Notes under the pieces: generated by a model | Seen by the model: the letters and a program-made list of their open reading frames with translations, nothing else | What the model was told of the DNA's origin: nothing | Database searches by the model: none | In this document: one piece after another, positions 446 to 23,773 of the stretch | How positions within the stretch are numbered: position 1 is the first letter of the stretch | Layout: every line of letters starts with the position of its first letter | Position numbers and translations under genes: made by a program | Assembly: GCA_973895155.1 (NCBI GenBank) | Contig: OZ316891.1 | Location: forward strand, 13,609,037 to 13,673,036 | DNA: 64,000 bases | Direction: 5' to 3' | Source of the DNA: Marsupella aquatica | Taxonomy: Eukaryota; Plantae; Marchantiophyta

Positions 446-859
446 GATTATTTAGTTTTACAATGTGAAGCCAAAGGGGTCTTAACTATGTACATTTCTA
501 TTGATTGGTTTTTTCAAACTTGCAAACAATTAAAAAATACAAGCATTTTGATATAAAACACTAATATATCTTTGACAAACATCAGAATGGTAACTTTATT
601 TTACTAAATGACATCTCTTCCTTTGTATTTTGGGTTTTTTAACATTTAATATTTACGTCATGGCGCCCCAAAAATTACGTTACTTTTGCCACAAATAGGA
701 ATGTGCACGTTTGTTATTGTTAAAAGTAGGATCATTCATGTTTGTGGTTGGTTGTGGCGATGTGGTGCAATCTCATGGCAGAGAATTTGCAAGAGACCTC
801 TCATGGGGGTCCGTAAATAAAGCCCAAACAAAATCTCATAAGGCCTACAATCTAAAGTG

Positions 860-2795
860 AAGCGCAAAATGGTACTCACCATATATTTACAAGAAAAAGC
901 GGGAGCAAAAGTTGGGCATTCCTGGAGCTACCCTATCCTACAATCTATCTATCAATTTTGAATTGATCATAAGCTCCCCTCGTTGGCGTGTCTTTGAATT
1001 ACTAGTTTGGATGGCTGCCCGTCTTTGCAACACAAAGGTAGATGATGTGAACAACTTTATTGTCACTCCGTTTGCTTAAAGAGTCCCACCCCCAAAGTGC
1101 TCTTCACTCCTAAGGTCATGGCTTTAGTTACTGTTGTAAGTGGAACTGTAGTTAGTTTTTATATGCAATTTCTTACTTAGATTTGCATCATTTTTATTGA
1201 TTTTCTCAATTAATATTTTTTTCCAAACCTCTGTTTTGAAAACTTTGCTATCTCCAATTACTTTGGTGTACCTCCCCCCAACCTTGCTATAACTCAAGAT
1301 GAAATTCTATTGTTTATGACCTAGTACTCCGTACAGCAAGCCACAGGGAATAATTATATACCTGGTAATAGAAAATTTTGATATTTAGACTATGCTTGTG
1401 ACTAGGGGCAGACATGTATGCATGGGGAGGGTATGGGGAGTCTGTACAATGAACCTATCTTCCTTGGAAAATGTTTTTTTTAATTTATTTGGATAGTGAC
1501 CACAAAAACCCCGTGGCAAGGAAAAACAGGAAGAGTCCCACAACACAAAATCAACGACCCCCACCGGGAGGGCGGAAACAACAATAGGAGATGAAAGCCC
1601 AAAGACCAGGCCGTCAAACTCAGACACAATGATCCACACATATCACCAGGTGAAAGCATAACTCACTTGTAACTACATGCCCCATTGACCAGCTGACCTC
1701 CTATCTAGATGTAATCCAGGTCAGGCGGCTGTTCAGCCAAACTATTCTTTCCTATATAAGTATCTCCTTCACTCTTAGCAATCGTGTGTGTTGCCTACTC
1801 AAGGGCAAACACTACAATGAGCCTATCTTTTGCATATGCACAAAGATTGCGCTAGTCATGAATCTTAGTTCTGACCTATAGTATTTCTTCCTGTCGCACC
1901 CATGGATACTATGTAGAGCGAAAATCACAAGCTAATACACAAGCTGTTTTAAGAGGAAATCCAGCTTTCTTGCATTATCTATCTAACGACTGGATACCGT
2001 AAGATGATTAAGTTTGTGCAAGAAATATATAATTACTGAAAATTTGAACCTTGATCTCAAATCCTGGTACAAAATTTTAGATTGTGTTTGTGAACTTGGA
2101 AAGAAATCTACATGCATATATTACAAATATTCTGTTGTGATAAATGTATATGTTGCCTTGTTTAAAAAATATAAAATAAAATATCTAATGAAAATTCATG
2201 ACATTACGCTAACCTACAATCGAATGGGAAAAGTAGTGAGTTTTTTTCCTCTTTTAAAGGGAAAATCAGTGAAACCCTACAGAAACCAGTTACAATATTT
2301 GAACCCAACTAAGACCTATTAGTCCCTAACTAATCAAGTAAGCTATCACACAGCCATTGATAATTATATGACTACTTTGGCAAAAAGATTACTTTGAAAG
2401 CATGCACAAAGCTGATTGTCCTTGTTGTAAAATCTTCACCTTGAAAAGTCAATCTGTGGTTAGGGCAAGGTTTCGTAGGCAGGCCGGTAGGGGTTTGGGG
2501 GCACAAGAACTCCCCTCCCAGCCCTAGTCGTTCCAGCATATACTATGTGAGGCATTTTTTTCATTTAAAGGAAAATAATAAGCTTTCTTGTAAAGAGACA
2601 GCCAAGGCGGGTTTACTGTTCTTGTTGCATTGCAAGGACATACACTCTGTTTGCTATTGCCCAATGAATTCTTGGGCTGGAGCACTACTGCATATGTACA
2701 TCTTTGATTTATCTTGACATTGTGATCTAGAGACCTTTGTTGGGTATTTGTAATATGCAATACCTATCTTGGAGCTTCACACCTATGGAAGAACA
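860..2795 (+). pseudogene. Possible highly decayed LINE ORF2 (reverse transcriptase) relic, continuing after 32788
   Basis: Broken-frame fragments resembling LINE RT motifs in the expected order: NGTHHIFTRKSG (~868), GIPGATLSYNL (cf. GxRQGxPLSP), VDDVNNF (cf. ADD, ~1038), YKYL (~1755), and GASHLWKNTVGSWNSLK reading through the Copia A TSD junction. Weak, by-eye similarity. Confidence 0.3.
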
Positions 2796-3110
2796 TGTTG
2801 AACTAAGACGTCATTCGCAACGACCATACAACCATGACCATACAACCAATATCTACGTGGTTCACCTCTTTTCCAAGGCTACGTCCACACGAACACTCAA
2901 GCTTTACTTCAAGAGTAAACGAACACACATGCTCTCCCTCTTCCTCAAGTTGCTCCGTTACAAAGAGTAAGCACCACTCACCAGCGGCTTACACTAGCCC
3001 TAGTATATACAAGGTCACACACGACTAACCTAACCTCAGCTAAGATCCTAACTGTGGTTAGCCTAAGTGCCGTAACCTTTGAGTCACAAGACTAAGAGCA
3101 ATCCTTAACA
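2796..3110 (-). repeat. 3' LTR of Copia A (315 bp)
   Basis: TGTTG...TAACA termini; near-identical to 32456-32787; adjacent to the PPT. Confidence 0.95.
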
Positions 3111-3314
3111 AACTCCCCCTTGACTCTAGTCTTGGGGACTGCAATTTTTGCTATCCATATGAGATACTCAGCGGGAAATTCTAGACAATCACCTAAAACC
3201 ATAGGTGTCCCCCTAAAAACCATTTAAGGTTAACTAAGAGTTAACTAGAATTAAGCCGTAGCCATAACAGGATTGAGTAACTCATATACATAAATCACAT
3301 CTTGTTAAGTTACT

Positions 3315-6300
3315 CTACTTGTGCTGCAAATGCAAAACCTGCAAAGTAGCACGGTGTCTTGAGTAACTCTCCAAAGGAATCACTTTGGTAAAAGCATCAG
3401 CCGGGTTGAGTTTTCCATCAATCTTGACTAGCTCAAACATTTTATCAGACACTGCTTGCCTAATAAAATGGTACCTGATTTCAATGTGCTTCACCCTACT
3501 ATCCATCACCTGGTTAATAGCTAGGTGAAGCGCACTCTAGCTGTCACAATGAAGAGCCATTTTTCCATGCTCCAATCCCATCTCAGTGACCAGCTTATCC
3601 AACCAAATTGTTTCCTTTGCTGCTTCTCCTGCTGCAACATATTCTGCTTCTGTAGTAGACTGACATACACACTTTTGCAAGGTAGATCTCCAACTTATGC
3701 ATCCTCCTCCAAGAGTAAACACATACCCAGTTGTTGACCTCCTTGTTTCCAGACAGCCTCCGTAGTCAGAATCTACATAGCCAACCAAAGATTTGGTTTT
3801 GTTTGATTTACTATCAAACAACAAACCATAATCTATTGTGCCCTTAAGATACCTGAGAATCCATTTCACAACCTCCCAATGTACCTTCCCTGGATTTGAC
3901 ATGAATCTACTCACTTTGCCCATTGCTAGGGCTAGATCAGGCCTGGTACATGTCATCAAATACATTAGACTGCCCACTGCCTTCTCATAAGGAACCTTAG
4001 TCATCAAGCCTCTCTCCACTGGATCCATGGGGCAGAAAGCCGATGATAACTTGAAATGTGGAGCCAAAGGAATACTTACTGGCTTACAATTTTCCATATT
4101 GAATCTTGCAAGTACCTTTTCAGCATACTTGCCTTGATTCAGCCACAATTGTCCAGTTTCAAAGTTCCTCGTAATCTCCATACCTAAGATCCTCTTGGCT
4201 TTCCCAAGATCCTTCATTCGGAATTCAGAACTCAATTTTGCTTTGAGTTTGTCAACCTCAGTTTGATCCTTAGCCGCAATCAACATGTCATCCACATAGA
4301 GCACTAGAATGAGCAAACCAAACACACCATTCTTGACTGATTTCGTATACACACAAGGGTCATACACCATCCTAGTGAATCCTTGTGCAAGCATGAAATC
4401 ATCAAACCGCTTGTTCCACTGTCGAGGAGCTTGCTTCAATCCATACAAGGACTTAAGCAACTTGCAAACTAAACTCTCTTGGCCCTTCTTCACAAAGCCC
4501 AGTGGTTGCCTCATGAAAATTTGTTCTTCCAAGGTGCCATAGAGAAAAGCAGTAACAACATCCATTTGATCTAACACCACATCAAAAAACACAACAAGTT
4601 GACACAAAATTTGTATCGTGGAATACTTGGCAACTGGAGAGAAGACCTCATTGTAATCCACTCCCTTCTCTTGAGTGAATCCCTTGGCAACAAGCCTTGC
4701 CTTGTATATCTTGTCTTCTCCATCTGAAGAGTTGTCCTTCAGTTTGTAAATCCACTTGCTATCCACCACTTGTTGATCACTTGGCAGTTGCACCAGCTCC
4801 CATGTTCTGTTGTCACTTAAAGATTGCAACTCCCTCTGCATCGCTGCATTCCATTCATCTTTCTCGTCTGAAATGCACGCCTCATGATAAGAAGAAGGTT
4901 CTCCTTCTTCCAAGATCAGTGCTCTGTCATCATCTTCAGGTGCAATGTCAACATCATCTAACCTTGATGAATCTGTCCATTGTCCATACCTTGTAGGAGC
5001 TCGAGTAGTACGTCTTGATTTTCTAGCTGATGATTCTGGTTGATCTTGTTCTATTGGTTGAATTTGAGGTATTCCAACAACAACTTGCTCCTCTTGTTCC
5101 AATACCGGAACCAGCTCCATTCTCGGAGCATCTCCTTCATTTATGTCATGAAAACTCTCATGACCAATCTCCCCCACAATATGGTCCAGGATAGGAGATT
5201 TACCTTTGTCAGTACGGGAAGTCTGAGCATTCTCCCCCTCCTTTGATGATCTGGATTCATTAAAGGATACATCTCTACTGACAAGCAACGTACAAGCTTC
5301 TGGATCCCATAGCCTGTAACCTTTCACACCTGGTTGATAACCAAGAAAAAGACACTTCTTGGAAGTAGAATCTAGTTTAGATCGATTCTGCTTAGGTGTG
5401 AGAGCATATGCATCACTTCCAAAGACTCTCAAAACCTGATAGTCTGCGTGCCGTCCATACCTCATTTCAAATGGCGTCTTGAAATTGATTGCACTTGAAG
5501 GAGAAAGATTTACCAAATAAGCTGCCGTATTTATAGCTTCAGCCCAAAATTCATGCGGTAAACCTGATTGGCTCAACATACTCCTCGATCGCTCCAATAG
5601 TGTTTGGTTTAGCTGCTCACAAACACCATTCTGTTGAGGAGTATAAACTGTCGTGAGATGACGAGTAATCCCTTGCTCTACATAATATAGTTCAAATTCA
5701 CTTGAACTGTACTCCCCGCCGTTATCTGATCGCAGATATCTCACCTTGGATCCAGTCTGATTCTCAATTTGGGCTTTCCACTTCTTAAAAGTGCCAAAAA
5801 CTTCAGACTTGGCATGTAGAAATGTGATCCACACATACCGTGAGTAATCATCAATGAACGTGACATAGTACAATTTTCCAGAAAATAAGGGAGTTGGGGC
5901 TGGACCTCACACATCACTATGTACATACTCAAGTATAGCTTTGGTATTGCGAGTTTCAACACCAAAGGTTCTCCTGTGCTACTTCCCAAGCACACAGTGT
6001 TCACAAAAATCTAGCTTAGTAGATTCCAAATTAGAAAGAAGTCCTTTCTTGCGAACTACTGTCAAACCCTTTTCACTCATGTGTCCCAATCTGCAGTGCC
6101 ATAACTGAGTCATCTCACCTTGAGATCTAGTTACACTAACTTCTTCACAAATCATGTTGCCCTCCAACAAATATAGATTCCTGTGCCGCTTACCCTTCAT
6201 GACAACCTTGCCTCCGGTTGACACTTGAAGAATACCATCAGCAGAACTCCACCGACATCCATTTGCTTCCAGCATTCCAAGAGAAATCAAGTTCTTTTTC

Positions 6301-6542
6301 ATGTCAGGTATATGTCTGACATTATTCACTATTCGCACAGCTCCATCAAACATCCGAATTTTCACGGATCCAATTCCAACAATTTGACAAGGATGATCAT
6401 TCCTCATCAACACAGAATCGGTTGATACTGAGTAAGAAGTAAAAAACTCTTTCATACAACAAATATGATAGGTACAGGCACAATCTAAAATCTATTCATC
6501 ACCATTGTTACTGGATGAAATGCAAAGGGCAACATCTGGACT
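3315..6542 (-). pseudogene. pol: Copia A pol (protease, GAG-pre-integrase, integrase, RT, RNase H) with in-frame stops
   Basis: ILDCAC protease, LWHCRLGH..CEHC, SDNGGEY, QQNG, YKARLVAKG, QMDVVTAFL, LYVDDML, STTEAEY, KHIEIRYHF. One frame interrupted by stops at ~6492, 5979, ~5906 and 3537. Confidence 0.93.
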
Positions 6543-7469
6543 TCACAAGATTTCATCATCAAGCAAGTCAATCATATCAACATCAGTGGCTGCGTTCGCT
6601 GATGGTTGATGAGTCTGCTTGATTCGACAGTCTCGTTTCATGTGGCCAAGCTTGTTACATTTCCAGCATATAATTGGTTTCCTTTCTAGAGATTTCTCTC
6701 TAGACCTGGATCTAGACTTAGATCGAGCCTTCTCCTTGCCTCTATTCCGTGAGGGGTACGTTTGTGAAAAGGACCTATTTTCACCAGTCATCCATTGTTG
6801 AGTCCTCCCGCGGTTCACATTCAATGCACTGCCAGATGAAGATGGTGTCTGGGCATGACCCAGTTTCTTCTGTGCATCATCTAACAACAAAGAGCTTACC
6901 ACCTCATTATATGAAATGGTTTTGAGATCTCTATACAAGAGAACCTGTTTCAAACCTTGATACGATGGGGGTAAGGAACTGAGAAGAAGCAATGCCTTAT
7001 CTTCATCTTCCATGCCCTTGCCAAGATTTGAAAAATCTACAGCTAGGCTGTCGAATTCATCCAAGTGATCTCGAAGCTTGCCTCCTTCTTTTAGCCTCAA
7101 GCTCATCAAGAGAGACTTCTTGTACAACCGATCTGAGGCATCCTCTCGGTAGTACTTCTCTCTGAGGGCCTTGAATAAGGATACGCAATCCTCGTAGTCG
7201 TCCAACTTCTTAATGATATGCGGCTTCAGATATAGCATAACCGCATTCACAACAATCACTTGCTCTTGCATCCATTTCCTCAACGAGATCTCCTCCTCAT
7301 TGCTAGACTCCTCCCGAGTCGATAGTAGATGATCTAGGCCCATAGCACAAAGAATTCCCTTAACCTGCTTCTCCCATAGCAAATAATCTGTGCGCCCATC
7401 ATATTTTTCCACCTCAAACTTGACACCTCCAAACTTGGATGCCATCGTTGTCCTCCGAACGTTCTCCAC
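6543..7469 (-). CDS. gag: Copia A Gag
   Basis: KFEVEKYDGRTDYLLW, LLLSSLPPSY (UBN2-type gag), CCHC knuckle CWKCNKLGHMKRDC. Confidence 0.92.
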   Translation of the reverse strand: MENVRRTTMASKFGGVKFEVEKYDGRTDYLLWEKQVKGILCAMGLDHLLSTREESSNEEEISLRKWMQEQVIVVNAVMLYLKPHIIKKLDDYEDCVSLFKALREKYYREDASDRLYKKSLLMSLRLKEGGKLRDHLDEFDSLAVDFSNLGKGMEDEDKALLLLSSLPPSYQGLKQVLLYRDLKTISYNEVVSSLLLDDAQKKLGHAQTPSSSGSALNVNRGRTQQWMTGENRSFSQTYPSRNRGKEKARSKSRSRSREKSLERKPIICWKCNKLGHMKRDCRIKQTHQPSANAATDVDMIDLLDDEIL

Positions 7470-7809
7470 GTGCTATTGCTGTGATGCTCCCTATATGCTT
7501 TTTCCTTCCTTCTCGTTGATTCAAATCCAAATCACGAAAAAATATTGTTTTTCGCAACTTTCCAAAAAACTTGAAACTTGTCACCGCCACTTAGCCCACC
7601 AACCTAGCAAGCCAACGCTGAAATCCAAAATTGAAATCGAGTTCCGACGAAAAACTTTTTCACATTTCGGTCGGGGTGGGTAAAACTCAAAAATTCTTCC
7701 CCGTTTTGACCACCTTGGGGAATAAGAAAAATTCCAAGTACCACCCGTCGTCGGAAATATCAGCCTATTCAATAAAAGTGTATTTTCTTTTGTTCACAAA
7801 TCAGTCTTG

Positions 7810-7878
7810 AAATGTACACTTTCATGTCCCCAAATGTACACTTTTTGGTCTCCAAATGTACACTTTATAGGCCAAATC
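7810..7878. repeat. Left subterminal repeats (C)CAAATGTACACTTT, 3 copies
   Basis: Seen directly, ~21-23 bp spacing. Confidence 0.85.
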
Positions 7879-8199
7879 ATATAAGTATTATATTAATAAA
7901 TAATACATATTATATCATTTATGATTCACAAAGAATAATAGGATAGAGATCATTATTTATGAATTCACAAAGAATAGTAGGATAGAGATCATACTTATAA
8001 AAACATTTCAGCACAAATACTCCCTTGAATATGTGTGAACAAAATGACATAACTCCAAATAGATTATAAAATAATATACAATTATCTCCAAATTTATAAT
8101 GTATTTCTTCTATCTAAGGGGCTTAACATGAGTCATATCTCTAAACAAAATGCTCCTTACAATGTGTATTTGAGCACGTGCCCCTGTCTCCTTTACTAT

Positions 8200-9176
8200 C
8201 TACCTAGTGTCACGGTTGCAAGTCCCTTTATCTTCAGGGAGCTGAAACTTGGTGGTGTTGTTCCTAATGGCTATAATCTCCCGCAAAAAGTGTCTGGGAT
8301 TTTCTCTATGTGGACCTGAATAGTCCCTTCCTACAAATGCTTTAGCAAGTGACGTGACAAGTGCATCGTCAAGTTCTGCCTCAGGACGTAAACTACATAT
8401 ACGATGCTTCACGTTCCAAGGAATCTCATTGCTGTTGAGATCCAACACACTATGCGTAAACTGTGACTTCCAAATTTTTGTTGCACATCTCTTACTAAGT
8501 TGATCATAAGTAATTTCATTTTTTACCTTGTCTCTCTTTATGTGCAATAGAGACCACAGTGGAGAGTTAAGAAGAAGATAACATCTAATGTCACTTGCAT
8601 GGGATAGTTTCTCAAGACAAGGCCAAAGAATTGTTAGAAGAAAATTATCTCCACCATTGGCATGCGTGTAGGGCACTGGAAATAGTCCGGTCATGCTTGG
8701 GTTGGCAAATGCCTTAAGGGGGGAGTCATCCACAAGGAGGGTGTTGGTTTCATCATATAGATTTCCAAATCCACTCCATACCACCCGAAAATCCTTCAGT
8801 AGCACATTTGTCTTTCCGTTTGTAATGTCACGCCTTTGAATGCCTGTGTCAAAGGCTTCCACTTGTGTGAATACAAACTTAAGTTTCAACTGCTCCTCAA
8901 CAGTGAACATCATGTTCAGCATTTTCACTGTTCGATGTACCCCAGCACATGTCCAAATTGCAACGTCAAATCGGTCAAAAACCAACTTTAGAAACTCATG
9001 GAGCCCTGGCCTTTCTGTGTACATGCGACTAATTCCATTTTTTCTATCCCAATGCACTCCACTTGGGATCACAACATTTCTGGATTTGCCCTTGCTTTGG
9101 AATTCAACTGAATCCCAAAGTATTTTGTTAAGATCCAAAATCAGCAATTTGCGCTTGATGGAACAAGGTCTTGGTT
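8200..9176 (-). CDS. FCP1/NIF (HAD-family, CTD-phosphatase-like) domain exon inside the DNA transposon
   Basis: RKLLILDLNKIL, RPGLHEFL, VAIWTCA, LLKDF, NTLLVDDSPLKA. Motif I is DLNKI, not the canonical DxDxT. No convincing ATG; strong acceptor TTGCAG| at 9178/9177. Confidence 0.82.
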
Positions 9177-11873
9177 CTGCAAGTGCAACAAATACCAATC
9201 TTAGAGATAAAACCACATTTGAAGTTTGGATAGAGATCATCTCTGTCAATCCAACACAAGTGGCCAACCACAAAGAAAATATATTTGCATACTGATCAGA
9301 TTCATTGAGAAACCGTAAAGAGGAGATGGATATTGATACTGATGCTCTAATTGTTAAACTTGAAGTATAATTATACAGACTATATTATATCAAATTGATA
9401 AGGTCACATCGCTCAATCTAGACCTTGGCTAACAATGCGATCCATATTCATCAATCAAGATATCATCACCGAGTTCTTGTTGGATCTCATAATTGACATC
9501 GGAGGTACTCTCCTCTACCCAATAAGGTGCAGACCAAACCGGAGTTATCAATCCCAATTCTCCACTTCTATAAGTTGGATCTTTCTTGTGCTTTTTGTAC
9601 GAGTCATTGTTCAAAATTGATTGAGCAGCATCCAACGCAACTTCAGTTCCTACATCGGGTCCACTTTTCCACACGTAACATTGACAATCATATTCAAGTG
9701 ACTTATATCCAGTTGATCCTACTCTCTTCCCTTTCTTTTTTGAGAGTGGAAGGATAACGGGACTTCTTGATTGTGATCGAACAAACACCAATTTGTCATC
9801 AGAAGCGGAAAAGAGTGTATTGGGACAAATTGAAGCACCTGCCTGGTTGTCAGCAGTCGTGGATGCACTTGCTTCATTCACGGGAATGTCAGCTATTTGG
9901 ATGGGCTGTGGTCTCAATCCCAATGTGTCGAGTTCATTGGACTCACCATGCCTCTCCGCACCTTGATTGAGAAGGTTGTTTGAAGAAAGTTTTTCAAAAG
10001 TATCAACTTCCATCTCTTGTCCAGACACTTGTGGATGGAGACCATCTCTATCCAAGTTATCATCATATTGGCCCTCGTTGGGGCCCATGGGGGCAGCATC
10101 TGTAATTGGTGAACTACAAGGTGCAGATCCAACAATCATATCGTCGTCCACAAGGTCAATATTTTCACCCTCGCCAACTCGGTCATCCAAATTCTTCACG
10201 TATGCCTCTGATGGCCCATCGTCTTTGACTGATTGGTCAGCTCCATCTTCTTGATCACCATCTGATTCATCCTCAATAGCAACAGCGGCAGAAGAGGGTT
10301 CCCAATGTCTAGAACTTCCACCGACATAGCGATCATAACGATCTTTGATGGTGGGAACCTTCTCACAAAGGAACGAAGCGTATGCTTCCACAAAATGTCT
10401 CTCATGTTGAGAGTCACAATAAACAAAACATTCACGTTGAGAAAAAAGGGATGCCTTCATCACTTGACCACCAGAGAAAAAGTCAAGAATCAAATCCCCC
10501 GGCTCGGACAGTGTTTGGATGATCTTTTGGATCATCCGTGTGGGTTTGGCGTGAGGATTCACCCACCCACCCCGAGCGCCGACAGTCTCAAATCGAGGTG
10601 CCATGTGCAGAAGGATTGCCGCCTCTTCTGGGGTCATCATATTTTTTAGATCTTCATGCAATGACTCCTCCTCCGCGTCCTTGGCCTTTCCCTTTCCCTT
10701 GACCTTCTCAACCACGAAATCAGTATCCTTTTCACCGTACACCCATTTTGGCTTCATTTGGTTGGGCTTGAACACTTCATCCCAACTGACGTTCTCCTCG
10801 CGAGAAATTCCGGCAAAGATAACCTCTTCTATTCCTCCCTTCCAACATGAGTCCTGAGGGTGAGGTTGATCATCTCGGTAATAACTCCCATACTCAATGT
10901 GAATACTCAGAGTTTTTGAATGTCCTAATTTACGAAGAGCGCTTAGGACATTCAGTACAAGATAACCCGGATGGACAGTTATCATCACAACAATGGTAGG
11001 ATTCCGTGGTAGCTCTACTATATATTGGAAGAGGACCAAAATCTCAACTTCAGTCCACTCTTTTTGCTGAAGTCGGCTGAAATCAACAATTGCAAGAGGG
11101 CATGTTGGAGATTGTTCTTCCAACGACTCCGGATCCACAGTCTTCATTAGGTTGTTACTAAAAAATGTGACCCACGGCTGGGTCCGAGAACTTGTCCCAC
11201 CGCCAAACTTTTGATAGTAAATATCATCTAGACGCATCACCAATGTCATTGGCAATATCTCACTCTCCTTTGTATGATTCGACTTCAACAAATTTGTCAA
11301 CCATACATCGCCAGCTGCTCTTCGGCACCTGTTCAACTCCGAATCGGGACCCAATAATGGGAGGACTTCAATCACTTTAGCCCAATCAGTATCTGCTGGG
11401 AAGTGTTTTGGATCCTTCTTGAAGTAGTAATCTCCAATAAGAGACTTCAATTTGATCAATATCTTCACCTCCTTTGCAAACTCCTCCATCGCTGGAACAT
11501 CTGACTTATTAGTCGGATCTTTCTTCAATAAAATCTGACCCAACTTCACCTTGTTCAAAATTCTGGTCAAATCTCTATTTGAGATTTCACCATCAAAACA
11601 ACGAAACATGGCGACGGTTATCGCCTTTTCGGACCTTTTGTTTCCCTATGTACCAGCCCCATCAGGAAGTTTTCCATCAATCCACATCTGGCACACTAAC
11701 CGCCATAACTCGAAAAGATCATTCTCGGCAAAAAGTAACCAGTATACATTTTTCAAGTCTTTTCTCCCCATGGTCATCCTTGCCAATGCCAGATAATCCT
11801 ACAGTCAAAAATTAGGGAGAATGTTGTAAGTTATCTACAATCAATGAGATTTGACAACACACAATCGCTTGCT

Positions 11874-12066
11874 TGGACAGAGACCATCTCCGTCCAAGCC
11901 ATAACCAAAAGTAGAATGAAGTAAAATCTACAGAATGGAAGATCTCACTCTTGGACAGAGACCATCTCCGTCCAAGCCATAACCAAAAGTAGAATGAAGT
12001 AAAATCTACAGAATAGAAGGTCTCACTCTTGGATAGAGACCATCTCCATCCAAGTCATAACCAAAA
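11874..12066. repeat. ~78-bp tandem repeat (2.5 copies) in intron 2, each carrying a palindrome variant
   Basis: TTGGACAGAGACCATCTCCGTCCAA-GCCATAACCAAAAGTAGAATGAAG... repeated. Confidence 0.9.
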
Positions 12067-13815
12067 ACATATTGAACTAAAATCAATGTAACGGACGGTC
12101 ACACTCTTGGACAAAGACAAGAAAAATGTTTCTCACCTGAAATTTTTGACTCTCTTGGGCGTTTGATTTGTTGTCCCCGTGCTTTGGCTTTCTTGGTCTT
12201 CCAGTTTCAAGGAATTGTTTTCTTGCATGAACAATTGTATCTTTGAAGCACGATTGAAACACCATCGAAGAATTGATGGCATTTGATCTCATTGAGTGCT
12301 CAACCAGTATAGCCGATGGCGTAAGGTCTGACAATAATCTAGCCTTCCTATATTTTAACTTTTTTGCCAAAACTGTGAGCTTGGCATCAGTTTCGGCCCA
12401 CTCAAGAACCCATTTGGCCGCCCTAGCAGAATGTTGCCCACTGACGGCAAGGAAAACAATCTCGCCTTTCTTCACTCCTGCAAGAAGGTCTTTGCGGTCG
12501 TTCTCCGTGCTGTCAAAATGAAGCAACTTTCTAAGTTTTGGATTGTAAGGAAGAAGGTCCGCAACGTGAGGTTCATGTCCAGGGTTTTTCACCATGGATT
12601 CGGCTATGTGCTTCACATGGGCACTGTTGAGCATCTTGTAACATAACCTTGCCGGAGCTGGATAAATTTTCTCCACTGGAATAGAAAATATTTCATTTAT
12701 CCCAAAAGTATAGTACTGCTCTATTCTTTGGAGAACATCATTCCCTTCTAAGACCTTCTTCTCCTCCGGGGCATCAAGTTTGTCTCCCTCATCCTCTGGG
12801 AGCATCTGTACGTCCGTCGGAGTTGACCGCGCAATAGTCTTGTCAGTTTTATGTTTCTTCTTTACTGGCTTCTTCTCGGGTTCCTTCGGCTGTGTCTCAA
12901 TTTTCTTGCGCTCCTTCTTCTCTCTTTGTCTTCGCTTCCCTACCACTTGTTTGGAGGCTGTCCCGGCCGTTGTTCCTACAGTCCCGGTTGTTGTCTCCTG
13001 AGATATTTTTCTAGGCTTCAGAACTTCTTTGTTAACAACTACTGGAGGCTTGTTCACCACTACTGGTGCAACATTTGTAGGCTTGTTCACCACTATTGGT
13101 GCAACACTTGTAGGCTTGGGTAATGATTCTACCCACTTTTTTGCATTATCCATTGCAAAATCCTCTGCAAATATAATTTTCTTGTCAAGGAAAACACCTG
13201 ATTCCGATGATAGGAATCCTGCCTTGTCAAGCAAATTATTTAAAATCCATGTCACCGGAAATGTATAATTCCCTTGGTGTTTATGCATATTAAGCTTCAC
13301 ATATTGAAACCCATACATGATGTCAAGTGGAAGAATCCCCTTCACTCCAAGAGTCACCTTTTGAGTTGAATATGACTTAGGGAAAAAGCCCATTGCCAAC
13401 ACGCCAAGTTCTCCAGCTGCAGACCACTCAACATTGAATTCTGAAGAATATGCCTTTGATAGTAGATGTAGTTTAACCCATCGTATCCTTTCATGGAGCT
13501 CAAGAATGACGAAAACAAACCCTCTTCCTTCAATTCCAATGAAGACTACAGATCCGAGTACAAGAGTCTCCTGATCTGCAGTTCTGACCTTTATGCACAA
13601 AATGGGATCCCGTCTCGTTGACGTGCTAAGGAAATCAAAATCAACTCTGGAGAACTCAAGGCCCCAACGAAAATCTTCTCTGCTCTGCTCCAACAAGACT
13701 CCCTCGGAGCAATCTGCGTCTGAAATCTGTGGTTTCAATGCATTTAGATAGCTCCCTGCAGTAGTCCCATCCAGGCATATTAGTTTGGAAATCTTACTTT
13801 TGTAATTGTCAAAAA

Positions 13816-14153
13816 TTGGACACGGATCATCTCTATCCTCTATTTGGACAGTGATGATCTCTGTCCAATTTGTAATAAAGATCAGCTCTGTTCGATGAGA
13901 GGATACTGACGATCGTTATTATCATCTCTATCCTCTACTTGGACAGGGATCATCTCTATCCAATTCCTAATAAAGGTCCTCAGCATCGTCTGATAGGACA
14001 TCCTCTATCGTCAGTTTGGAAATAAATGATATCTATGCAATTGGACAGGGATGATCTCCATCCATTTGGATAGAGATCATCTCTGTCCAATTCCTAATAA
14101 AGATGACTATCTTCTATTTGGACTCTACTTGGACAGGGATCATCTCTGTCCAC
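13816..14153. repeat. Array 1 of the 25-bp palindrome TTGGAYAGRGATSATCYCTRTCCAA (intron 1 of the accessory gene)
   Basis: Copies at 13816, 13844, 13939, 14041, 14066 and 14129, plus degenerate ones. Confidence 0.9.
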
Positions 14154-14504
14154 CACACAAATATTCAACTTGTTACTGGGATACTCACTTGGATTGAGCG
14201 ATTGAAAGGCTCTGGAATCCTCGAGGGCCGTCTCCACCACGTCCTCAATGGATGAGAGGTCTGTCTCCTCTGTTGGCTCACTGACGAGACACACTGGAAT
14301 AGGTCTGGATGGCTCCATCGTGTGACACGTGGCCTTATGGACACGTGGAGGATTGCAGAGCGTTAGATCTAGGGCAATTAACGTGGTGGCTATGGGGATA
14401 AACTTTAGTGCGGAGGCAAAGCGAAGGAGTGCAAAGGCGTCGGAGTGAAGGAGATTGGAAGATAATGAGGCGGAGGAGCAAGCAAAGGAGCGCAAGAGCA
14501 GGAG

Positions 14505-14625
14505 TGGAGAAGAGGAGGAGCGGACGGAGGAGGGAGGAGAGCGAGCGAGGAGGAGAGCGAGCGAGGAGGAGAGCGAGCGAGGAGGAGAGCGAGCGAGGAG
14601 GAGAGCGAGCGAGGAGCGAGGAGGG
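14505..14625. repeat. Purine-rich 16-bp repeat (GAGGAGGAGAGCGAGC)n between the divergent transposon genes
   Basis: About 5-6 tandem copies seen directly. Confidence 0.85.
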
Positions 14626-15289
14626 AATGAAGAATGAGGCCCAAGTGGGACCTCCTGCCTCCTTTACCCCCCCTCGAGGCGAGGCAAGGCACACTGAACA
14701 CGTGGGAGGCCGAGGCGAGTGGAAAACCCTACATGCACGGCTGCCCTAAAGTGCGCCGCCCGACCTAATCCACTCGCCGTTGCTTAAGGCTGATCACGCA
14801 TCGCCTTATCCATAAGGGCGATCTTCAACAACTGGTATAAGATACTTGGGGTTGTCCGGCTGGTCCTCATTTGGTATTTTCATTTCTAGATTTTTGTTCT
14901 GTTCCTCAACCAGGTCCGTTCATTACGGAGCCCCATTGAGACACTCTTGTTTTCCAGACAGAACATCTAGTTTTAATTTCTTCCACACCCCTGAAGCATT
15001 TAGTTTACCAGGTTACTGATAACTACCCCTTCAACACAGTATTTTAATCCTTGGTTTGACAACATAAACTAAATTGAGTTTTGGGTTCAAGAATCATTTC
15101 CATTACAGGTAACTTTAAACCTAATTATAGAATTGTAGCATATTCCATTGATATCCGCAAATTTAGGAATTACTATATCTAAGTTAAGGTTGAAGTGAAA
15201 AAATCCCAGCCCAACTCACGATTGGGATAATCTCAATCCAACCGTTCTTTGCTCAAACATTAAATTCGTGTGTAGAGTCAATTGTCCGT

Positions 15290-15896
15290 ACAGGGGTCAT
15301 CCCTGTTTGCTATTTGGATAGGGATCATCTCTATCTGCTGTTTGGATAGGGATGATCCCTGTCCACCGTAGAGTACTGTAGAGGACCATATGAACTATAG
15401 CACTTTATTGGATCCTCTACAGTTTGGATCCTCTGGTTGGATAATGATCCGTATTCGCCGTTTGGATCCTCTGGTTGGATAATGATCCGTATTCACTGTT
15501 TGGATGGGGATGATCCCTGTCCGCCATTTGGATAGGGATGATCCCTGTCCACCGTTTGGATAGGGATGGTCCCTGTCCGCCGTTTTGATAGGGATGATCC
15601 CTGTCTACCCTTTCAATAGGGATCCGTGTCCGCGGTCGTTCTCCGGATGATCCCTGTCCGCCGTTTGAGGTATTTGCTTGATTGGACCCCAATATGAAAA
15701 GTTTCCTTGAATCATCCCTGTCAGTTGTTTGGACAGGGAATAGACCCGATCCACCATTTGGACAGGGATCAGGCGTGTCCGCCTTTTGGACAGTGACAGA
15801 CACTATCCGCTGATTAGGCAGGGATGATCCTTGTTTGCCGTTTGGACACTGACAGACACCCTATCCGTCGTTTGGACAGGGATCATCCCTATCCGA
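15290..15896. repeat. Array 2 of the 25-bp palindrome, ~28-bp period, upstream of the transposase CDS
   Basis: Copies at ~15314, 15342, 15500, 15528, 15556, 15584, 15612, 15729, 15758, 15786, 15814, 15842 and 15872; lies before a splice acceptor TGTGCAG at 16068-16069. Confidence 0.9.
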
Positions 15897-16086
15897 CGTC
15901 TAAATTGGGATCAGGGATCTTAGGGCTAGATAGGGACTTTTTGGGGACCTATTATTTTGCTTGATGGGGATAATCCCGATATGCGCACTGTCCTTGGAGA
16001 GGGTTGACACCTATGTGCTTCCTAGTTGGGACCATTCTTAACTAATACTTTACATTTAAAATTGTGCAGGTGAATACGTTATAGGA

Positions 16087-19000
16087 ATGACCGGAATATT
16101 TTTGAGAGGAGACAATGTGATATTGACAAATGATGGTAACGATGTTGCGAGCGGGACAGTTCAAAAAGTCAACCCGCAAGATAGTGTTCAAAAGATATTG
16201 TTGAGAGAGAATCGAATGGGAGTTCTCATTGAGAAAGTTTTTGACCGAACCACAAAACTACTATTTCCGATGCCTCGGGCAGAAAACCTTTTTGATGCCA
16301 TTGATTCTTGCGTTATTTGGGATTTGTCTTGCGCATATCTATCCACGACAACAAATTCTCAAAAACGCATTAGTGTAGGTAGTTGTTCAAATAGACCCGA
16401 GAGTAATTTGGAGAAAAATCCAATTGTAGAGGAGGACTCATCGACCACTCCGAGGCAAGGGGATGAGGTTGAAATGTTCATCTTTGGGTGTTGTGTAGCC
16501 CTTGGAGTTGTTTTCAATACAAATCCAATGGAAAGATGTCACAACATTTTACTTGGTGAATCACGGATCAGTGTGAGGGTCACTGATGTCATTCATGGGA
16601 GTAGGGTTTTACCTTACAAACACAGTGGGGCTGAAACAATTGACGAGGCAAAAGACTCATGGGTTCTCTGGGACGTGGCAGATGTCCGAAGTAGAAAGAG
16701 TTTCTCAAAGAAGGATGCGGATGATGATATCAATATAGAGCGGAGTTTTGTTGTGGAGTCTCCCTCAGTTGAAATTTCTAAAACTAATTGTGACTATTTC
16801 CAACGGTCAAATTGGATGTCAGAGTTGGTCGAACTATACATCGGTTCAGATCGAACCAATAGGGTTGCCACGGGGACCATCACTGTGCCTCAAGAAACGG
16901 CGGCGGTTGACGATGAAATGCTTGGTGAGGACCATGTAGGGATTGCTGTGAAAGATGTGGTGGAATCACAATACTTTCCCAACTTCCATAGGGGAGTAAT
17001 TACTTTGGTTCGGTGGCGAATTGATTCAACAAAACTACTTGCAAATGGGAAATTTTTGTCGGACATTTTGGTTGAAGGTTCAGAGAGGATGGAGTTGGTG
17101 GATAGGGATGATCTCTATCCAAATGTAAATGATAGGGGAATGCTGCGCACAAGGCCATACAATTTCAACAAGAGGACTCATGTAGATCCGATTGAAAAGA
17201 AAAGAAGGCTATTGGAAACCAAGGCAGTTTCAAAAACAACGAAAGCTTCGATTGATGAAATTAAAAGAGAGAATTGTTGCAAGCAGAAATGTTGTCTGAC
17301 TATGCCAAGAGAAGACATAGAAGATATTCAGATAGAATTTCACGGGATGTCTAGTGAGTCAAAAACATCACACATTTTCAACCTCTTCCACTACAGAGAA
17401 GATGATGTTCGTGATAAGGGGCACCATGTTCTCAAGGGTATGGTCGTATGTAGACATGCATTTGCAATCATCCATGGCTTTAGCCACATAAAATATTATG
17501 ACTACAAAAGGAGATATGTGGAGGGCTGCAAAATTGGGTTCCATGGAAACACGGGCTCCATGAAAACAAGGTCAAATACCTTGCATGCACGAGCTCTGTT
17601 GGAGGATTTTTTGACTCGAAATGCAGAGCCCATGCCTCATATACCTTATGCTGGGGCTCATGGGACAGACTCCACTGAATATCGTCTTCCAGCATGTTAC
17701 AAGAAGCTGGAGATTTTGGAAGATGTGAGAACAAAGATGAAGGAAGAGGGGCTTCCTCCAGTTACAGAGAATACTCTGTACAAGATTTGGAGCAAATCAT
17801 TCGCAAACTTCAGTTTCCATAAAGATGGTGCATTTGCCAAGTGTACTCTTTGTTGTGAATACAAAGATAGTTTGATGCGAGAAAGAAGGAAAAAAGAACG
17901 TGCTGAAATTGAAGAAAAATGAGCGCAACATCTTTGTGAGAAAATGTCACGTAGATATGTTTACTATGCTCATCGAGTGATGGCTAAGCAACATCCAGGG
18001 GAATATCTTTGCATCATTCATGACAAGATGGATCAAGCAAAGACGTGGATTCCAAAAATGGTTAGTACTCCTAAATCGCTTTCGGGTCATGGGATGCCGC
18101 TACCTATTGCTCTGACAGGGATGTTGACCCACGGAAGGGATCTAGGAGTCATGCACACTTTAGTGTCACTGGCCTTTGGCCAGGAGATGCCGATTTCACG
18201 GTGACATCCTTGGCTAAGTGTCTTCGAGACCTTGAAGAGTACAATGGAGACAAGACAGGTGACATGTTGGATGGCCTTTATTTGGAACCTCATAGACCTT
18301 TCTTTCAAGCCCTTCTTGACTTTGATGCATTTTTTAAGGGATATTTGGAACCAAAGAGTATTCCAATGAATAGGTATATTGGTTCTGAAGATGCAGCCGA
18401 GAGTCAGACGGAGACGGTCTCCACCCAACTTGGTGAGGATCAAGGAGGGGACATGCATGGGGAACAAGGCAGTCCATCTTTCAAGCCCTTGCCAAGGCAC
18501 CTAACATTGCAAATGGATAACTCAGCAAAGGATAACAAAAACCAGACTGTCATGGCATTTTGTAGTGAGCTTGTGAGTAGAGGAGTATTTGAAACTGTTC
18601 AAATGTCTTTTCTTATGGTTGGTCATATGCACGAAGATGTTGATGCACTCTTTTCGAAGGTATCATATCAAGTTCAGCACAAGGAAGTTGCAACTCTCCT
18701 TGCTCTTATGGCAGAGGTTTGGGAATGTGAGAGCATTCATCCAGTTCCCAGATTGATACAAGAAGTTGCATCTTACAAAGAATATCTTCAAACTTTCAAC
18801 GTTAAAGATATTCAAGGTCACTCAAAACCTGTATCATTTCTTTTCTCTATGAGAGATAATGTACCAATATTTCAGTATAAGTCCCATGTAAAGCAAGCTT
18901 GGGCTCTAGTTGGTGGAAGGTGCATTAGGGCAACAGATCTGACAACAAATTCCCTTCTTTTACCTAGTGGAGAGCCCTTAGCTAAATCCATTGGAGAGAT

Positions 19001-19829
19001 ACACAAAAAATCTGAAGAGATTATCCCATTTCTTACCAAGTACCTTGATTTTTTGAGAAGAAGTTGCACTGATGAGACATCTATAGCATATAAGGAAAGA
19101 TTTCCTCTTGTGAAATATTGGGAGAGAATTGTGGAGTTGTTGACAAATGGGCTTGCACTGGAAGGGGAGGGAAGTACTCAATTTCCCTTGAAAAATGGAT
19201 TTTGGCCTAAGACTAACCATGGCACTGATTACAAGGTCAACCAACCGGATCAAAGTGGTCCTCCAAGTGAAGATGAGGAGAATGCGGAGATGACAGCTCT
19301 TCAAAATGAGGTCTTGGAAGAGATGGAAGATCAAGCGGCACCATTTGTTGGATCTCGAGCTGAGAGAGAACAAGGACGGTGGATTCCCCTACAGGATATT
19401 TGTCAAGGGAACTTTGTATTTCTTCGACCAGAGGATGATTGGGAGAATAAAAATGGTGGAGGTCATTTCTGGTTGGTGAGAGCTTTGGGTTTGGTTGACC
19501 CTAAGCATGAAGTCCCAACTACATCTCCAACAAACCCTCCTCTGCCTCAACAATATGCTCCAATGTTTCCAGTCGAATGGTGGAGGCCTAAACACTCTAA
19601 ACTTGATGTGACTGAGAGTGCACGGTATCTAAACTGCTTCATGTCCACTAAGACATGGGAGCGAGATCCAGGGTTTGGTGAGAACGCTCAACATTGGCAG
19701 TATGCAAATTCTGCAATGTATGGTTTTAAATCTGGCATGAAAGAAGAAAACATGGCGGGCAGAGGTTTGAAGATTCCTCGAAATGTTCTACAAACTATCC
19801 AAAGTTATCTCCAAAGGATGGACAAGTAG
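16087..19829 (+). pseudogene. Sola1-like DDD transposase with three N-terminal Tnp1/En/Spm-like repeats; disrupted by one stop and one frameshift
   Basis: ORFs 16087-17922, 17944-18204 and 18201-19829 join through TGA at 17920-22 and a frameshift near 18145-18150. Motifs: CCKQKC, VCRHAF, FAKCTLC..H, IIHDKMDQAK, LQMDNSAKDNKN, FLMVGHMHEDVDALFS. Confidence 0.85.
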
Positions 19830-20074
19830 ACTTAGTTGTTACTTGTGAAGCTATAATAATTATTAAATAGATAGTTACTTAGATAGTAACAAGTACCTAC
19901 TAGTTATTTACTATTTTAATAGTTTTAATGTGAGACCATGCCATTGAGTGTTAGTTATACTATCTCCTCATTTTCTAAACTTTTGATTGTTATGAATATG
20001 AATGTTTGCTTTTTTTGCATAATTAAAAATATTTTTCTATTCATTCTTTTCTTTTAAATGATTATAATAAGAGT

Positions 20075-20400
20075 TGGTACACTTTTTAGGCCAAATGTAC
20101 ACTTTGTTGCACTCAAAGCTACACTTTCTAGACCAAATGCACTTAAATGTACACTTTTTAAGCCAAATGTATGTTTTTTTCACTCAAATGTACACTTTCT
20201 AGGCCAAATGTACTCAAATATACACTTTTAAAGCCAAATGTACCTATTTTGATGTTCAAATATACACTTTTCATTGCCCAAATGTACACTCTTTAGGCCA
20301 ATTGTACACTTTTCTATCCCCAAATGTACACTTTTCATTGGCCAAATGTACACTTTTTCAAGCCCAAAAGTACACTTTTCATTGCCCAAATGTACATAAA
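20075..20400. repeat. Right subterminal repeat array CCAAATGTACACTTT, ~13 copies, ~22-bp period
   Basis: Seen directly, running up to the right TIR. Confidence 0.9.
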
Positions 20401-23368
20401 TCAAATAATAATACACTTTTAATGAATAGGCTGATAAATTCAAATCGAGTGATGCACCGCGTTGCTAGCTTCAGTGGCTACGTTCTCGCCAAAAAAAATC
20501 CAAAAAAAGTTACCGTTCAGACCTTGGAATCTTTGACTAAAGGCCGAAAAACAGCTCTCTGTTTTTTTGGAATATTCCTTGGACTGTGCAACAGGTCTTA
20601 CAGGGGGCCGTTCCCCCTGTCCAAGCGGTTAATTTGGTGGGTCACCGGGCCCGGGATGCCGCTTAACCAATGAGGAGCCTGGAAAGGATTAAAAAACCGG
20701 GCCTAAGGGGGTTTAAGCCCCTTAACACAAAAATACTGTCTTAAAAAAGGCGCCTATACGCATGACGGGCCAGGCAGTGCACAGGGGGCCGGGGAGTAAA
20801 AAACCGAGTCGAAATGGGCAGGGATGGAGCTGCGACAGCCGGGAGTTCTGGGATGTCCACGACGGCCGCGACGATCGGGACGTCTGGGACGTCCGTGCCG
20901 ACTGCGACGTCCGAGACGGCCGGGACGGCCGGGACGTCCATGATGGGAGTATTAGCGAGGAGGAGGAGGGGATCGCCGATGGGGTATTGACAGGGGTGCA
21001 AGGGTCGGGAGGGTGTGTATACACACCACAAAAAAGGCCCTATTCTAAGTTAAAATATGCACAAAAAATAAATTTGTTGGGTTACTCACACTGCCATTAT
21101 CACTTTACACCAGATAAAGACTAGTTGTCGACGGGAAATGTTACCAAATTGCACCGGCACCGTTTGCAACTCTAGCAGAGTAAAAAATTCCCGTCACGAC
21201 TCCTTCACTTCGCGTCAAGTGTCAATCTTGGACTCAAAACGACCACTGCACCGCGATCTCTCCGTTGAGCCGTTGCACTTCCCGTTTCTTCCTTTGAGTC
21301 AAACGCAACGACAAGTAACCCCACTTCAGTCAAAAGAAGACTCCATAGCCAGTCAAAAACTCAGAACGGCTCTTTTGCTTGGTACATCGCACTCACTACA
21401 CCCTCGATAGCAAACCAGCTACCAAAATAATCAGCTTTGCCCGATCTACGATTTGAGCTAAAGGTTGTGACGCCTCGCGCACCACAAAACTCACACCGTC
21501 GAGAAAATGATCTCAGTTCCCCCCCAAAAGAACCGTCGAACAAAACCGTCGAACACGAATCACAAAAAATCCAGAACGACGGAAACGTGAATTCCTCCGC
21601 ACCACGAACTCCGTTCAGAGATTTCTTTGCACCGTCAAAAAGCCCTTGCCCCGATCTATCCGTTGAGCCCAACACGTCCAAGTTCCATGCAACAGAACTC
21701 CGTCTCGGGGGTTTCACTTCCACAAAAATGGCATATCACGTGCGACGAAGGATAGGGTCATTTTATTGGTTCTAAAGGAAGACTTAAGAATTTTTGTAGA
21801 AGAATAATAGTGTATTTTAAATTCAATTTTGAGACTTATAAGAACATTAGGGTCTTTTTAATCCAATTTTTAGAATATTCCAAGAATATTCCAACTATAT
21901 AGGGGTTAGAAAATAATATTTTTTTTCTTACATTTTAGGGGGTCCGAGGCCTAAAAACGTCGCAGGCGATGGGGAGGTCCCCATATAGTGAGACCCCCAA
22001 GAACTCCGTGAAATCCACCAACTCTAACTATTGTATGCTATCAAAAGCAAATATCATCGAATATATTCTAAAAACTCGGTGTTCGTTCCCGTGGAAGAAC
22101 AAGAATGGGATGAAAAGATGTTTTAAAGTGTTTTGAGTGGTTTAAAGATGATACTCAACATCTATAAGAAAAATAGAATCTTAAACAAAACACAAAGAAT
22201 TAATAAAATAAGAACAAAGTGACATTTGTTGTACAACAGAATCTTAGAGCTTTTAGAGGTATAGTTTAGCAATATTTAACTCCGTCACCATGTCTTAAGA
22301 AAGAGCTATGGCATTATTTGAGACGTTGATAAGTCAAACATAACCTTGCTATAACTGCTCTCTAGGTTTCTATCATAAATCTATGTTTAAGAAGTGTCTA
22401 TGCTCACAAAACCCAAGATAAGTTTCGGATTGTGTATATAGTAGTGTGTCATTAAAATGCCGGCAACATGTTTCCTTCTTCAGCGATGCGCAATTCCAAA
22501 GGAAAACTAATGCACATTCAGTATACCACAATGGTACTTCAAATCCGTGAATTAAGAATGTCGCTACTTCTTAATCATATAGATTTCTATTTCTTGATTT
22601 CATGCAATACTTATCTTCCAAAGATAAGTCCTTCATGTAAATACAGAAATGGACAACAAATGTTGTAGTTTGGATTAGGCACCGACCAACGGATCTTCTA
22701 ATACATTCCACAAACTGTATTTTTATGGGTTTTACTTCTTACGGTAATTGCAACATGCATTACCATACGAAGGAGGGGTAGACTCCTAGCACAAGTAATC
22801 AAATTCCAAGGTATGCAAATCTTCCTTGCAAAATTGCATTACACGTACAAGGGACAAAACTCCAAGATGAGGAGATGCAAATAACTATCCACACTGTCTC
22901 AAAATGAGACTGGTATCACAATAAGTACATGAGATCGCCCATAGGCTAAGGAGAATGAAGAGACATGCCTCTTCATTTCCTAAGTCTAAACTAAGTAAAG
23001 TAAAAGTCAACTTTGACTAAGGGATAGTCAAATGGTCAAAGCTAAGTAAAAGTCTACAAAATAAAATACTAATCTCATACTGTAATAGGAGGAGGGTCGA
23101 CTACAAGTATGTTGAGCATAGACGACGATCGCAACGGCAAGCCCATGAACCATCCAACGCACAATAGTCGACACAAGAGATACGTGGTTCACCTCCTTGA
23201 GGCTACGTCCACGGGAACACACAAGAGAGCTTTACTGAACTCTAAGCCCGTCGGTTATACCGAGTCTCCACATGTAAGCTCTCCCTATCTCTCAAGTGGC
23301 TCCATAACAATGAGCCTTGGTTCTACCTCTCCAAGCACACATGCCTCTTATGATATAGTGTGCAACTT

Positions 23369-23550: not shown

Positions 23551-23773
23551 ACCTAACCTAGACGTAAGAGTAAATACCCAACAATCTTCCCCTTGACTCT
23601 GGTCTAGGGGAGAGTAATACTGCCAATGTATATGATCCCTCAGCGGGAAGTTCTGGACAGAACCAAACCGGTTTCCCTCTCTAACTAGAGCAAACCAGAA
23701 CTAAGCCGTAGCCTAATACATAGGAATGAGGAAGAGCATATATCAGTAATTACAATGAATGTTTAAGAAAACT

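Follow-up and report, generated by a model that had tools for sequence, protein, structure and literature searches.

The 64-kb stretch of Marsupella aquatica DNA analysed here (contig OZ316891.1, positions 13,609,037 to 13,673,036; hereafter the window) contains a 12.7-kb DNA transposon at 7758-20436 and, inside it, a 977-nucleotide (nt) exon on the minus strand, 8200..9176, that encodes a NIF (FCP1/SCP-like) domain. We conclude from sequence comparison that this exon is conserved FCP1/SCP-like cargo of a many-copy transposon, probably made as a protein of its own of 329-386 amino acids (aa) and not fused to the methyltransferase-like protein encoded on the same strand, which likely ends at its stop codon at 9429. 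An earlier interpretation made from the letters of the window (the sequence-only reading) had as its headline a 1703-aa product uniting the two. That fusion is probably not real, being poorly supported because its splice donor is weak, because it removes a conserved C-terminal motif and because being in frame is cheap.

The assignment of the NIF fold is secure. The domain scored 57.2 bits against Pfam PF03031 (cut-off 21.8), its model matched SCP1 by Foldseek at 8.1e-07 (model mean pLDDT, the predicted local distance difference test, 57.6, with the loops of low certainty) and also CTDNEP1 in the structure search, and an atlas search with the NIF protein returned NIF proteins in 30 of 30 hits. 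Compared with the FCP1/SCP (NIF, PF03031) HAD phosphatases SCP1/CTDSP1, CTDNEP1 and UBLCP1, the window protein shares the fold and the Thr, Lys and Asp motifs, but differs in its motif I (DLNKI), in the lack of a BRCT domain (none in the Pfam scan), in an extra helical C-terminal part of about 120 aa and in being transposon-borne. Every NCBIfam cut-off was missed (TIGR02250, 15.3 vs 135; TIGR02251, 32.1 vs 139; TIGR02245, 51.6 vs 192). The exon begins behind a good phase-1 acceptor, TTGCAG, and stays open for 324 codons, and relatives at 34-44% identity keep the whole NIF frame, including the C-terminal part that is missing from host-type proteins. Directly ahead of the NIF domain, two distant relatives (P0007 and P0004) carry Leu-Ala-Gly/Glu, as at the window acceptor, a footprint that would be expected of a conserved TGCAG phase-1 acceptor.

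The methyltransferase-like accessory gene, whose frames all lie on the transposon's minus strand, has three predicted exons. A first coding exon of 130 nt (14189..14318, ATG at 14318) ends in the strong phase-1 donor CAA/GTGAGT; exon 2 spans 12137..13755, with a conserved 3' part; and the last exon (9429..11798) encodes a helical region, the methyltransferase-like domain, an acidic linker, a C-terminal domain and an EYGS motif before the 9429 stop. Good support for the junction between exons 2 and 3 comes from the relatives P0109 and P0072, which read straight across it. The two upstream donors of the gene rank 2 and 9 (the latter that of exon 1) of 341 GT sites, in an approximate ranking made with a rough weight matrix.

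A search of the full library with the 738-aa frame of this gene yielded 95 relatives. A conserved C-terminal motif, Glu-Ile-Gln...Leu-Gly...Asp-Glu-Tyr-Gly-Ser, is reached by 16 relatives (15 of the 95 hits and the cluster member P0109), all of which stop 2-21 residues later, 14 of them within 10; the other 80 hits, most of them fragments, do not have the motif at their end. Among the 16, P0048 is a gene model of a eukaryote, Calypogeia fissa, and P0109 is an uninterrupted 1009-aa open reading frame (ORF) running from the exon-2 region to the stop. The C-terminal 140 aa (9432-9860, minus strand) form a conserved domain, with a core pLDDT above 90 in P0109, for which there was no Pfam match and no usable atlas match. 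Many divergent copies of the transposon are present in four public runs from two organisms (A and B), at 632-4827 contigs per run; these contigs are of unrecorded kind, which cannot show splicing. The only copy variant listed in the 41-nt tail of the gene, at 9438, is silent.

Much of the splicing scheme behind the proposed fusion was found as claimed. The acceptors TTGCAG (exon from 9176) and TTAG (exon from 9346) and the donors GTATGC (9292) and G/GTGATG (9470/9469) are present and all phase 1, and the five exons total 5109 nt (130+1619+2329+54+977). What does not hold in the window copy is the open 1703-aa frame, which is interrupted at codon 634 by a TAG (11648-11646, exon 3); this internal stop counts against the fusion here, and shows only that the window copy is broken. 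Nor does agreement of frame carry much weight, as the in-frame sum is little above chance: with introns of at least 60 nt, the upstream frame can also be connected to the NIF exon without a stop by 30 GT-AG paths that use one intron and 343 that use two.

We regard it as unlikely that, in intact copies, splicing from the 9470/9469 donor links the mini-exon and the NIF exon to the methyltransferase-like ORF in a 1703-aa long isoform. The phases agree and the junction frame is open, just 82 nt separate the 9429 stop from the mini-exon, no copy variant of 10% or more touches the donor, and gene models from Riccia sorocarpa fuse both domains. Against these points, the donor is weak (rank 117 of 341) and its use would cost the protein its last 13 codons, with the best conserved part of the C-terminal motif; Lys or Glu occupies the GT-carrying Gly codon in 5 of 15 alignable relatives; the 343 alternative two-intron paths are equally in frame; and an unchanged donor is expected by chance because only 21 of 326 positions vary among copies. 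For that same reason, we dropped the invariance of splice dinucleotides among copies as evidence. Fusion while keeping the C-terminal motif is more improbable still. It would use the GT at 9433, the only other one in the tail, joined to an AG at 9345 or 9339 and continuing through the long frame 9384-8200. This donor outranks 9469 (rank 58 of 341) and, joined to 9344 or 9338, leaves the frame open in the window copy, but it runs into a stop when joined to 9346 or 9176; moreover, this frame is disrupted at three points by variants common in organism B, two of which (9341 and 9294) create stops while the third deletes 4 nt at 9282, and the stretch contains a repeat copy of the kind found in other introns. 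A minor long isoform of the fused protein is conceivable. Two further candidates in this region were discarded: the long frame 9384-9177 as coding sequence, ruled out by copy variants, and the AG/GT at 9423 in the spacer as a conserved donor, since a variant at 9422 removes the GT in many organism-B copies.

Several observations weigh against a separate NIF protein. Of the 16 relatives that stop behind the C-terminal motif, most were probably called as single ORFs from genomic contigs; such calls would terminate at a stop inside an intron even for a spliced gene. Exon 1 is without a significant homologue, and its likeness to the N-terminus of P0092 was not significant, being matched in 297 of 5000 and 85 of 1000 shuffles. 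The donor at 9292, behind the mini-exon, ranks 119 of 341 and is no better than the one at 9469. Finally, two Riccia sorocarpa gene models, P0092 and P0102, which are the only 2 of the 95 hits to carry NIF sequence, join it to methyltransferase-like sequence in one chain. In P0092, of 999 aa, Pfam recognises the two domains, and the NIF portion is of the same subfamily as the window NIF, at 37% identity; P0102 shows only the text of motif I and is not significant by BLASTP or profile. Both models are single-member 'hypothetical proteins' in which the C-terminal motif is absent and the junction appears damaged: motif I is missing from one, and the other breaks off some 45 residues into NIF. We read them as showing old neighbours in the same orientation, not a fused product. 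A search for longer fused forms covered only 1767-5000 aa, above the length of the 1703-aa product, and was uninformative. It is very unlikely that the NIF exon is instead a captured host fragment carried without expression (Pack-type cargo): DLN-type host proteins do occur in plants, but the 324 open codons, the entire frame kept by relatives at 34-44% identity with its C-terminal part, and the presence of the same subfamily behind the methyltransferase-like gene in a Riccia model all speak against it. Of the linkage first proposed between the two genes, what stands is a spliced, conserved cargo exon anciently paired with a methyltransferase-like gene, and what falls is the specific fusion through 9469.

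As to how a separate NIF protein would be made, we tentatively prefer a shared first exon, a possible route in which one promoter near 14.4 kb would give a single pre-mRNA with a phase-1 first exon. Joined to exon 2, this exon would yield a 1372-aa methyltransferase-like protein in an intact copy; joined over a 4.8-kb intron to the mini-exon or directly to the NIF exon, it would yield NIF proteins of 386 or 368 aa, in a manner resembling En/Spm. The frame of exon 1 fits exon 2, the mini-exon and the NIF exon alike, and the joins to the latter two are free of stops. The second route, which we also treat as no better than possible, would start translation at the in-frame ATG at 9305 within the mini-exon, giving 329 aa behind a TATAAT at 9389; the frame from this ATG is likewise open. 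That the NIF exon needs an exon upstream is supported; the statement of the sequence-only reading that it lacks a good start is incomplete, given this ATG.

The mini-exon (9293..9346, minus strand, 54 nt) begins and ends in phase 1. Of 4 variable positions among copies, 3 have changes that are silent or conservative in its frame, and pieces that cover it have gaps of 3 or 6 nt in minor copies. These gaps fit a coding mini-exon and so favour a shared exon 1 or, to the detriment of our reading, a fusion, over the own-ATG route. Together with a branch-point-like TAAC retained in a divergent copy subfamily, they tilt the balance slightly towards the shared first exon. Downstream of the mini-exon, the 116-nt stretch 9177..9292 (GTATGC...TTGCAG) is a likely intron, with 12 variable positions and frame-breaking indels among copies and, at 9226-9256, one copy of a 28-nt palindromic repeat of the same family as in introns 1 and 2. 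Ahead of the mini-exon lies an 82-nt spacer (9347..9428, minus strand, 71% AT) with indels among copies, a TTAAC ahead of the 9347 AG and the TATAAT at 9389-9384, which may be a TATA box or a poly(A) signal. A sigma-70 promoter scan was set aside as not applicable to a plant.

The function of the NIF protein is best approached through its motif I, where the window reads DLNKI in place of DxDx(T/V) and relatives read DLNG, EVEK or DVEG. The second Asp is absent in 4 of 4 element-type lineages with a readable motif I (the window, P0003, P0004 and P0102). The occurrence of the DLN variant in plants, as the sequence-only reading had it, was borne out by two grass-like proteins (P0001 and P0002) and one from Vanilla (P0005). 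The nucleophile Asp is kept, as are motifs II-IV (the Thr of WTC, K127, and D149 in the DD motif). Among NIF proteins, Tim50 is a binding-only member that is not known to have activity. The window protein is probably a binder or trap because Asn replaces the general acid/base Asp. It would, on this account, probably bind or trap proteins carrying phospho-Ser/Thr, such as the C-terminal domain (CTD) of RNA polymerase II (Pol II), more than dephosphorylate them. CTD phosphatase activity is doubtful, and the active CTD-phosphatase module once proposed finds no support in the four lineages. A separate NIF protein that does dephosphorylate the CTD or some other phosphoprotein, with its activity low or altered, seems to us improbable; the kept nucleophile and Thr, Lys and DD motifs and the fold matches to SCP1 and CTDNEP1 argue for it, and some HAD enzymes work without the second Asp. 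Against it stand the missed NCBIfam cut-offs, the sequence of P0003 (44% identity), which reads Glu-Val-Glu in motif I and no longer carries the second motif-IV Asp, and, in SCP1, the naming of both Asp96 and Asp98 of DxDx(T/V) as catalytic in the available text of PMC7281111.

The partner protein has a beta-class N6A/N4C permuted methyltransferase fold. Its domain scored 26.8 bits against PF01555 (cut-off 26.7) and matched M.RsrI at 8.8e-09, and the model of P0109 matched M.PvuII by Foldseek at 1.7e-07. The S-adenosylmethionine-binding motif I is kept (DFFSGG). The segment that strand order in the fold would place at motif IV reads DFSR, with DFAR, DLTH and similar forms in a 20-row alignment, and not (D/S/N)PP(Y/F). 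For the conserved 3' part of exon 2, the label ParB could not be confirmed: there was no Pfam match in 3 of 3 sequences and no PDB sequence match, and the structure model has pLDDT mostly under 50. A conserved SGQHS motif in this region bears a likeness to ParB motifs.

With both enzyme-like domains lacking canonical catalytic motifs (DLNKI, DFSR), binding or decoy functions are likelier than catalysis. The methyltransferase-like protein, without a PPY motif, would probably act as a DNA-binding protein on the 28-nt palindromic repeats, for which it is a plausible candidate reader, and the two binding proteins together would help the transposon to stay transcribed. Further out, and unlikely as it stands, one promoter and a shared first exon could serve two pseudo-enzymes, a repeat-reading methylase-fold protein and a Pol II-gripping mimic of a CTD phosphatase, in an anti-silencing system of a new type that is fused in some lineages. 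A family in which a bacterial-type methylase fold and a CTD-phosphatase fold have stayed adjacent from Riccia to the window genome, both with altered catalytic motifs, would suggest another means of influencing how the host transcribes.

In flowering plants, anti-silencing accessory proteins of transposons are already known (TnpA and VANC), and N4-methylcytosine is found in the liverwort group. The short target motifs of VANDAL/VANC reportedly lie in non-coding parts of the element, and the 28-nt repeats look similar to them in placement; the likeness is drawn from placement and not from sequence or domains, and binding to the repeats is a candidate property. Like our element, VANDAL transposons carry accessory proteins, the anti-silencing VANC proteins (PMC10398659). 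With En/Spm (CACTA) and its TnpA/TnpD, the element shares the character of a DNA transposon, subterminal repeats and accessory products; it differs in its DUF7869 transposase, encoded on the opposite strand, in its non-CACTA ends and in that both proposed alternative products are accessory. Alternative splicing gives En/Spm several proteins, and its related families alternate between splicing and tandem split genes, according to the portions of PMC1636069 and PMC13547354 that were available. Among beta-class N6A/N4C methyltransferases (M.PvuII, CcrM, M.RsrI, the bdelloid N4CMT and Marchantia MpDN4MT1), the likeness extends to fold and motif I, and MpDN4MT1 also offers a bacterial-type methylase in a liverwort context; the window domain is unlike them in its DFSR at motif IV and in being embedded in a large transposon protein. 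The active MpDN4MT1 has TSPPY, as given in the accessible text of bioRxiv 10.1101/2021.02.12.428880. DIRS1 retrotransposons carry an N6A-methyltransferase-like domain judged inactive and proposed as a binder, possibly near RNA polymerase II (PMC4738411, main text in part); in contrast to our element, that domain belongs to a PCIF1-derived group, sits in a retrotransposon and has no NIF partner. We found no published account of such a transposon in the literature searched, and Repbase reports, subscription papers or the supplements of PMC4738411 may contain one.

The NIF query against proteins of 568-2000 aa recovered only two host-type proteins among 1268 candidates and missed P0092, and is hence insensitive; a metagenome scan gave two unrelated loci among 227 pattern matches, and viral contigs yielded 0 of 12. 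An unrelated NIF gene (L001, 496-1101) lies beside DNA-methylase-like and RING-like frames on a metagenome contig resembling a giant virus, and in the atlas, too, some NIF clusters close to the window protein are from Nucleocytoviricota. For the accessory protein, 20 of the 95 hits were looked up, and the closest with a name were gene models from two liverworts, Calypogeia fissa and Riccia sorocarpa. At the 3' end of the NIF exon, one extra nucleotide follows 8202, at the stop codon, in many copies, and the relatives P0003 and P0004 extend about 40 residues further with a Cys-rich tail; the NIF protein of the window copy may be shortened.

The transposon itself has the hallmarks of a cut-and-paste DNA element, namely inverted repeats, a transposase, many copies and insertion into other sequence. 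Its terminal inverted repeats (7758-7792 and 20402-20436) are 89% complementary, and 22-nt subterminal repeats lie inside both ends, at 7810-7866 in the left end (7758..7866) and within 20077..20436 in the right. That it is an insertion follows from its flanks, which match the uninterrupted leader of a second copia element (28088-28453). As a possible target-site duplication we observed AT on both sides of CAG...CTG, or ATAT/ATAA, the paralogous empty site being strongly diverged. The element does not conform to CACTA/En-Spm, its ends reading (TAT)CAG...CTG(ATA) and Pfam showing DUF7869 and no Transposase_21. The element may resemble the Sola superfamily, which is characterised by its own transposase and a 4-bp duplication. 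Sola had no Pfam model in the part of PMC5751038 available, and the superfamily of the transposon is not settled by the accessible parts of that paper and PMC4455052.

The divergent DUF7869 transposase-like gene occupies the plus strand (16060..19829; Pfam 4.5e-39); in the window copy a stop (17920-17922) and, near 18110-18150, a frameshift disrupt it. As the accessory gene is interrupted by a stop as well, this copy is defective. One family comprises 16 copies of the 28-nt palindromic repeat; most lie in introns or in the region separating the divergent genes, where arrays fill 15265..15902, with further copies in introns 1 and 2. The underlying palindromic 25-28-nt motif, TTGGAYAGRGATSATCYCTRTCCAA-like and with a GATC-containing centre, occurs at 9226-9256, 11867-12059, 13795-14159 and 15265-15902, and also once inside exon 3 (10032-10056) and once inside the transposase (17092-17125).

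A Pfam scan of the window placed copia elements on both sides of the transposon. The two related elements, 3089-7756 and 23560-28453, are about 75-80% identical; the first, in whose leader the transposon is inserted, carries stops, and the second is interrupted by a single stop, at 27047, that lies between gag and pol. In some organism-A contigs the transposon sequence gives way at 9469 to one that starts with TGTCACC and resembles the end of the neighbouring copia repeat; a long terminal repeat (LTR) element may have inserted there in a few copies. Beyond these elements, an inverted repeat pair of about 290 nt and 74% identity at 33363-35211 may bound a non-autonomous element.

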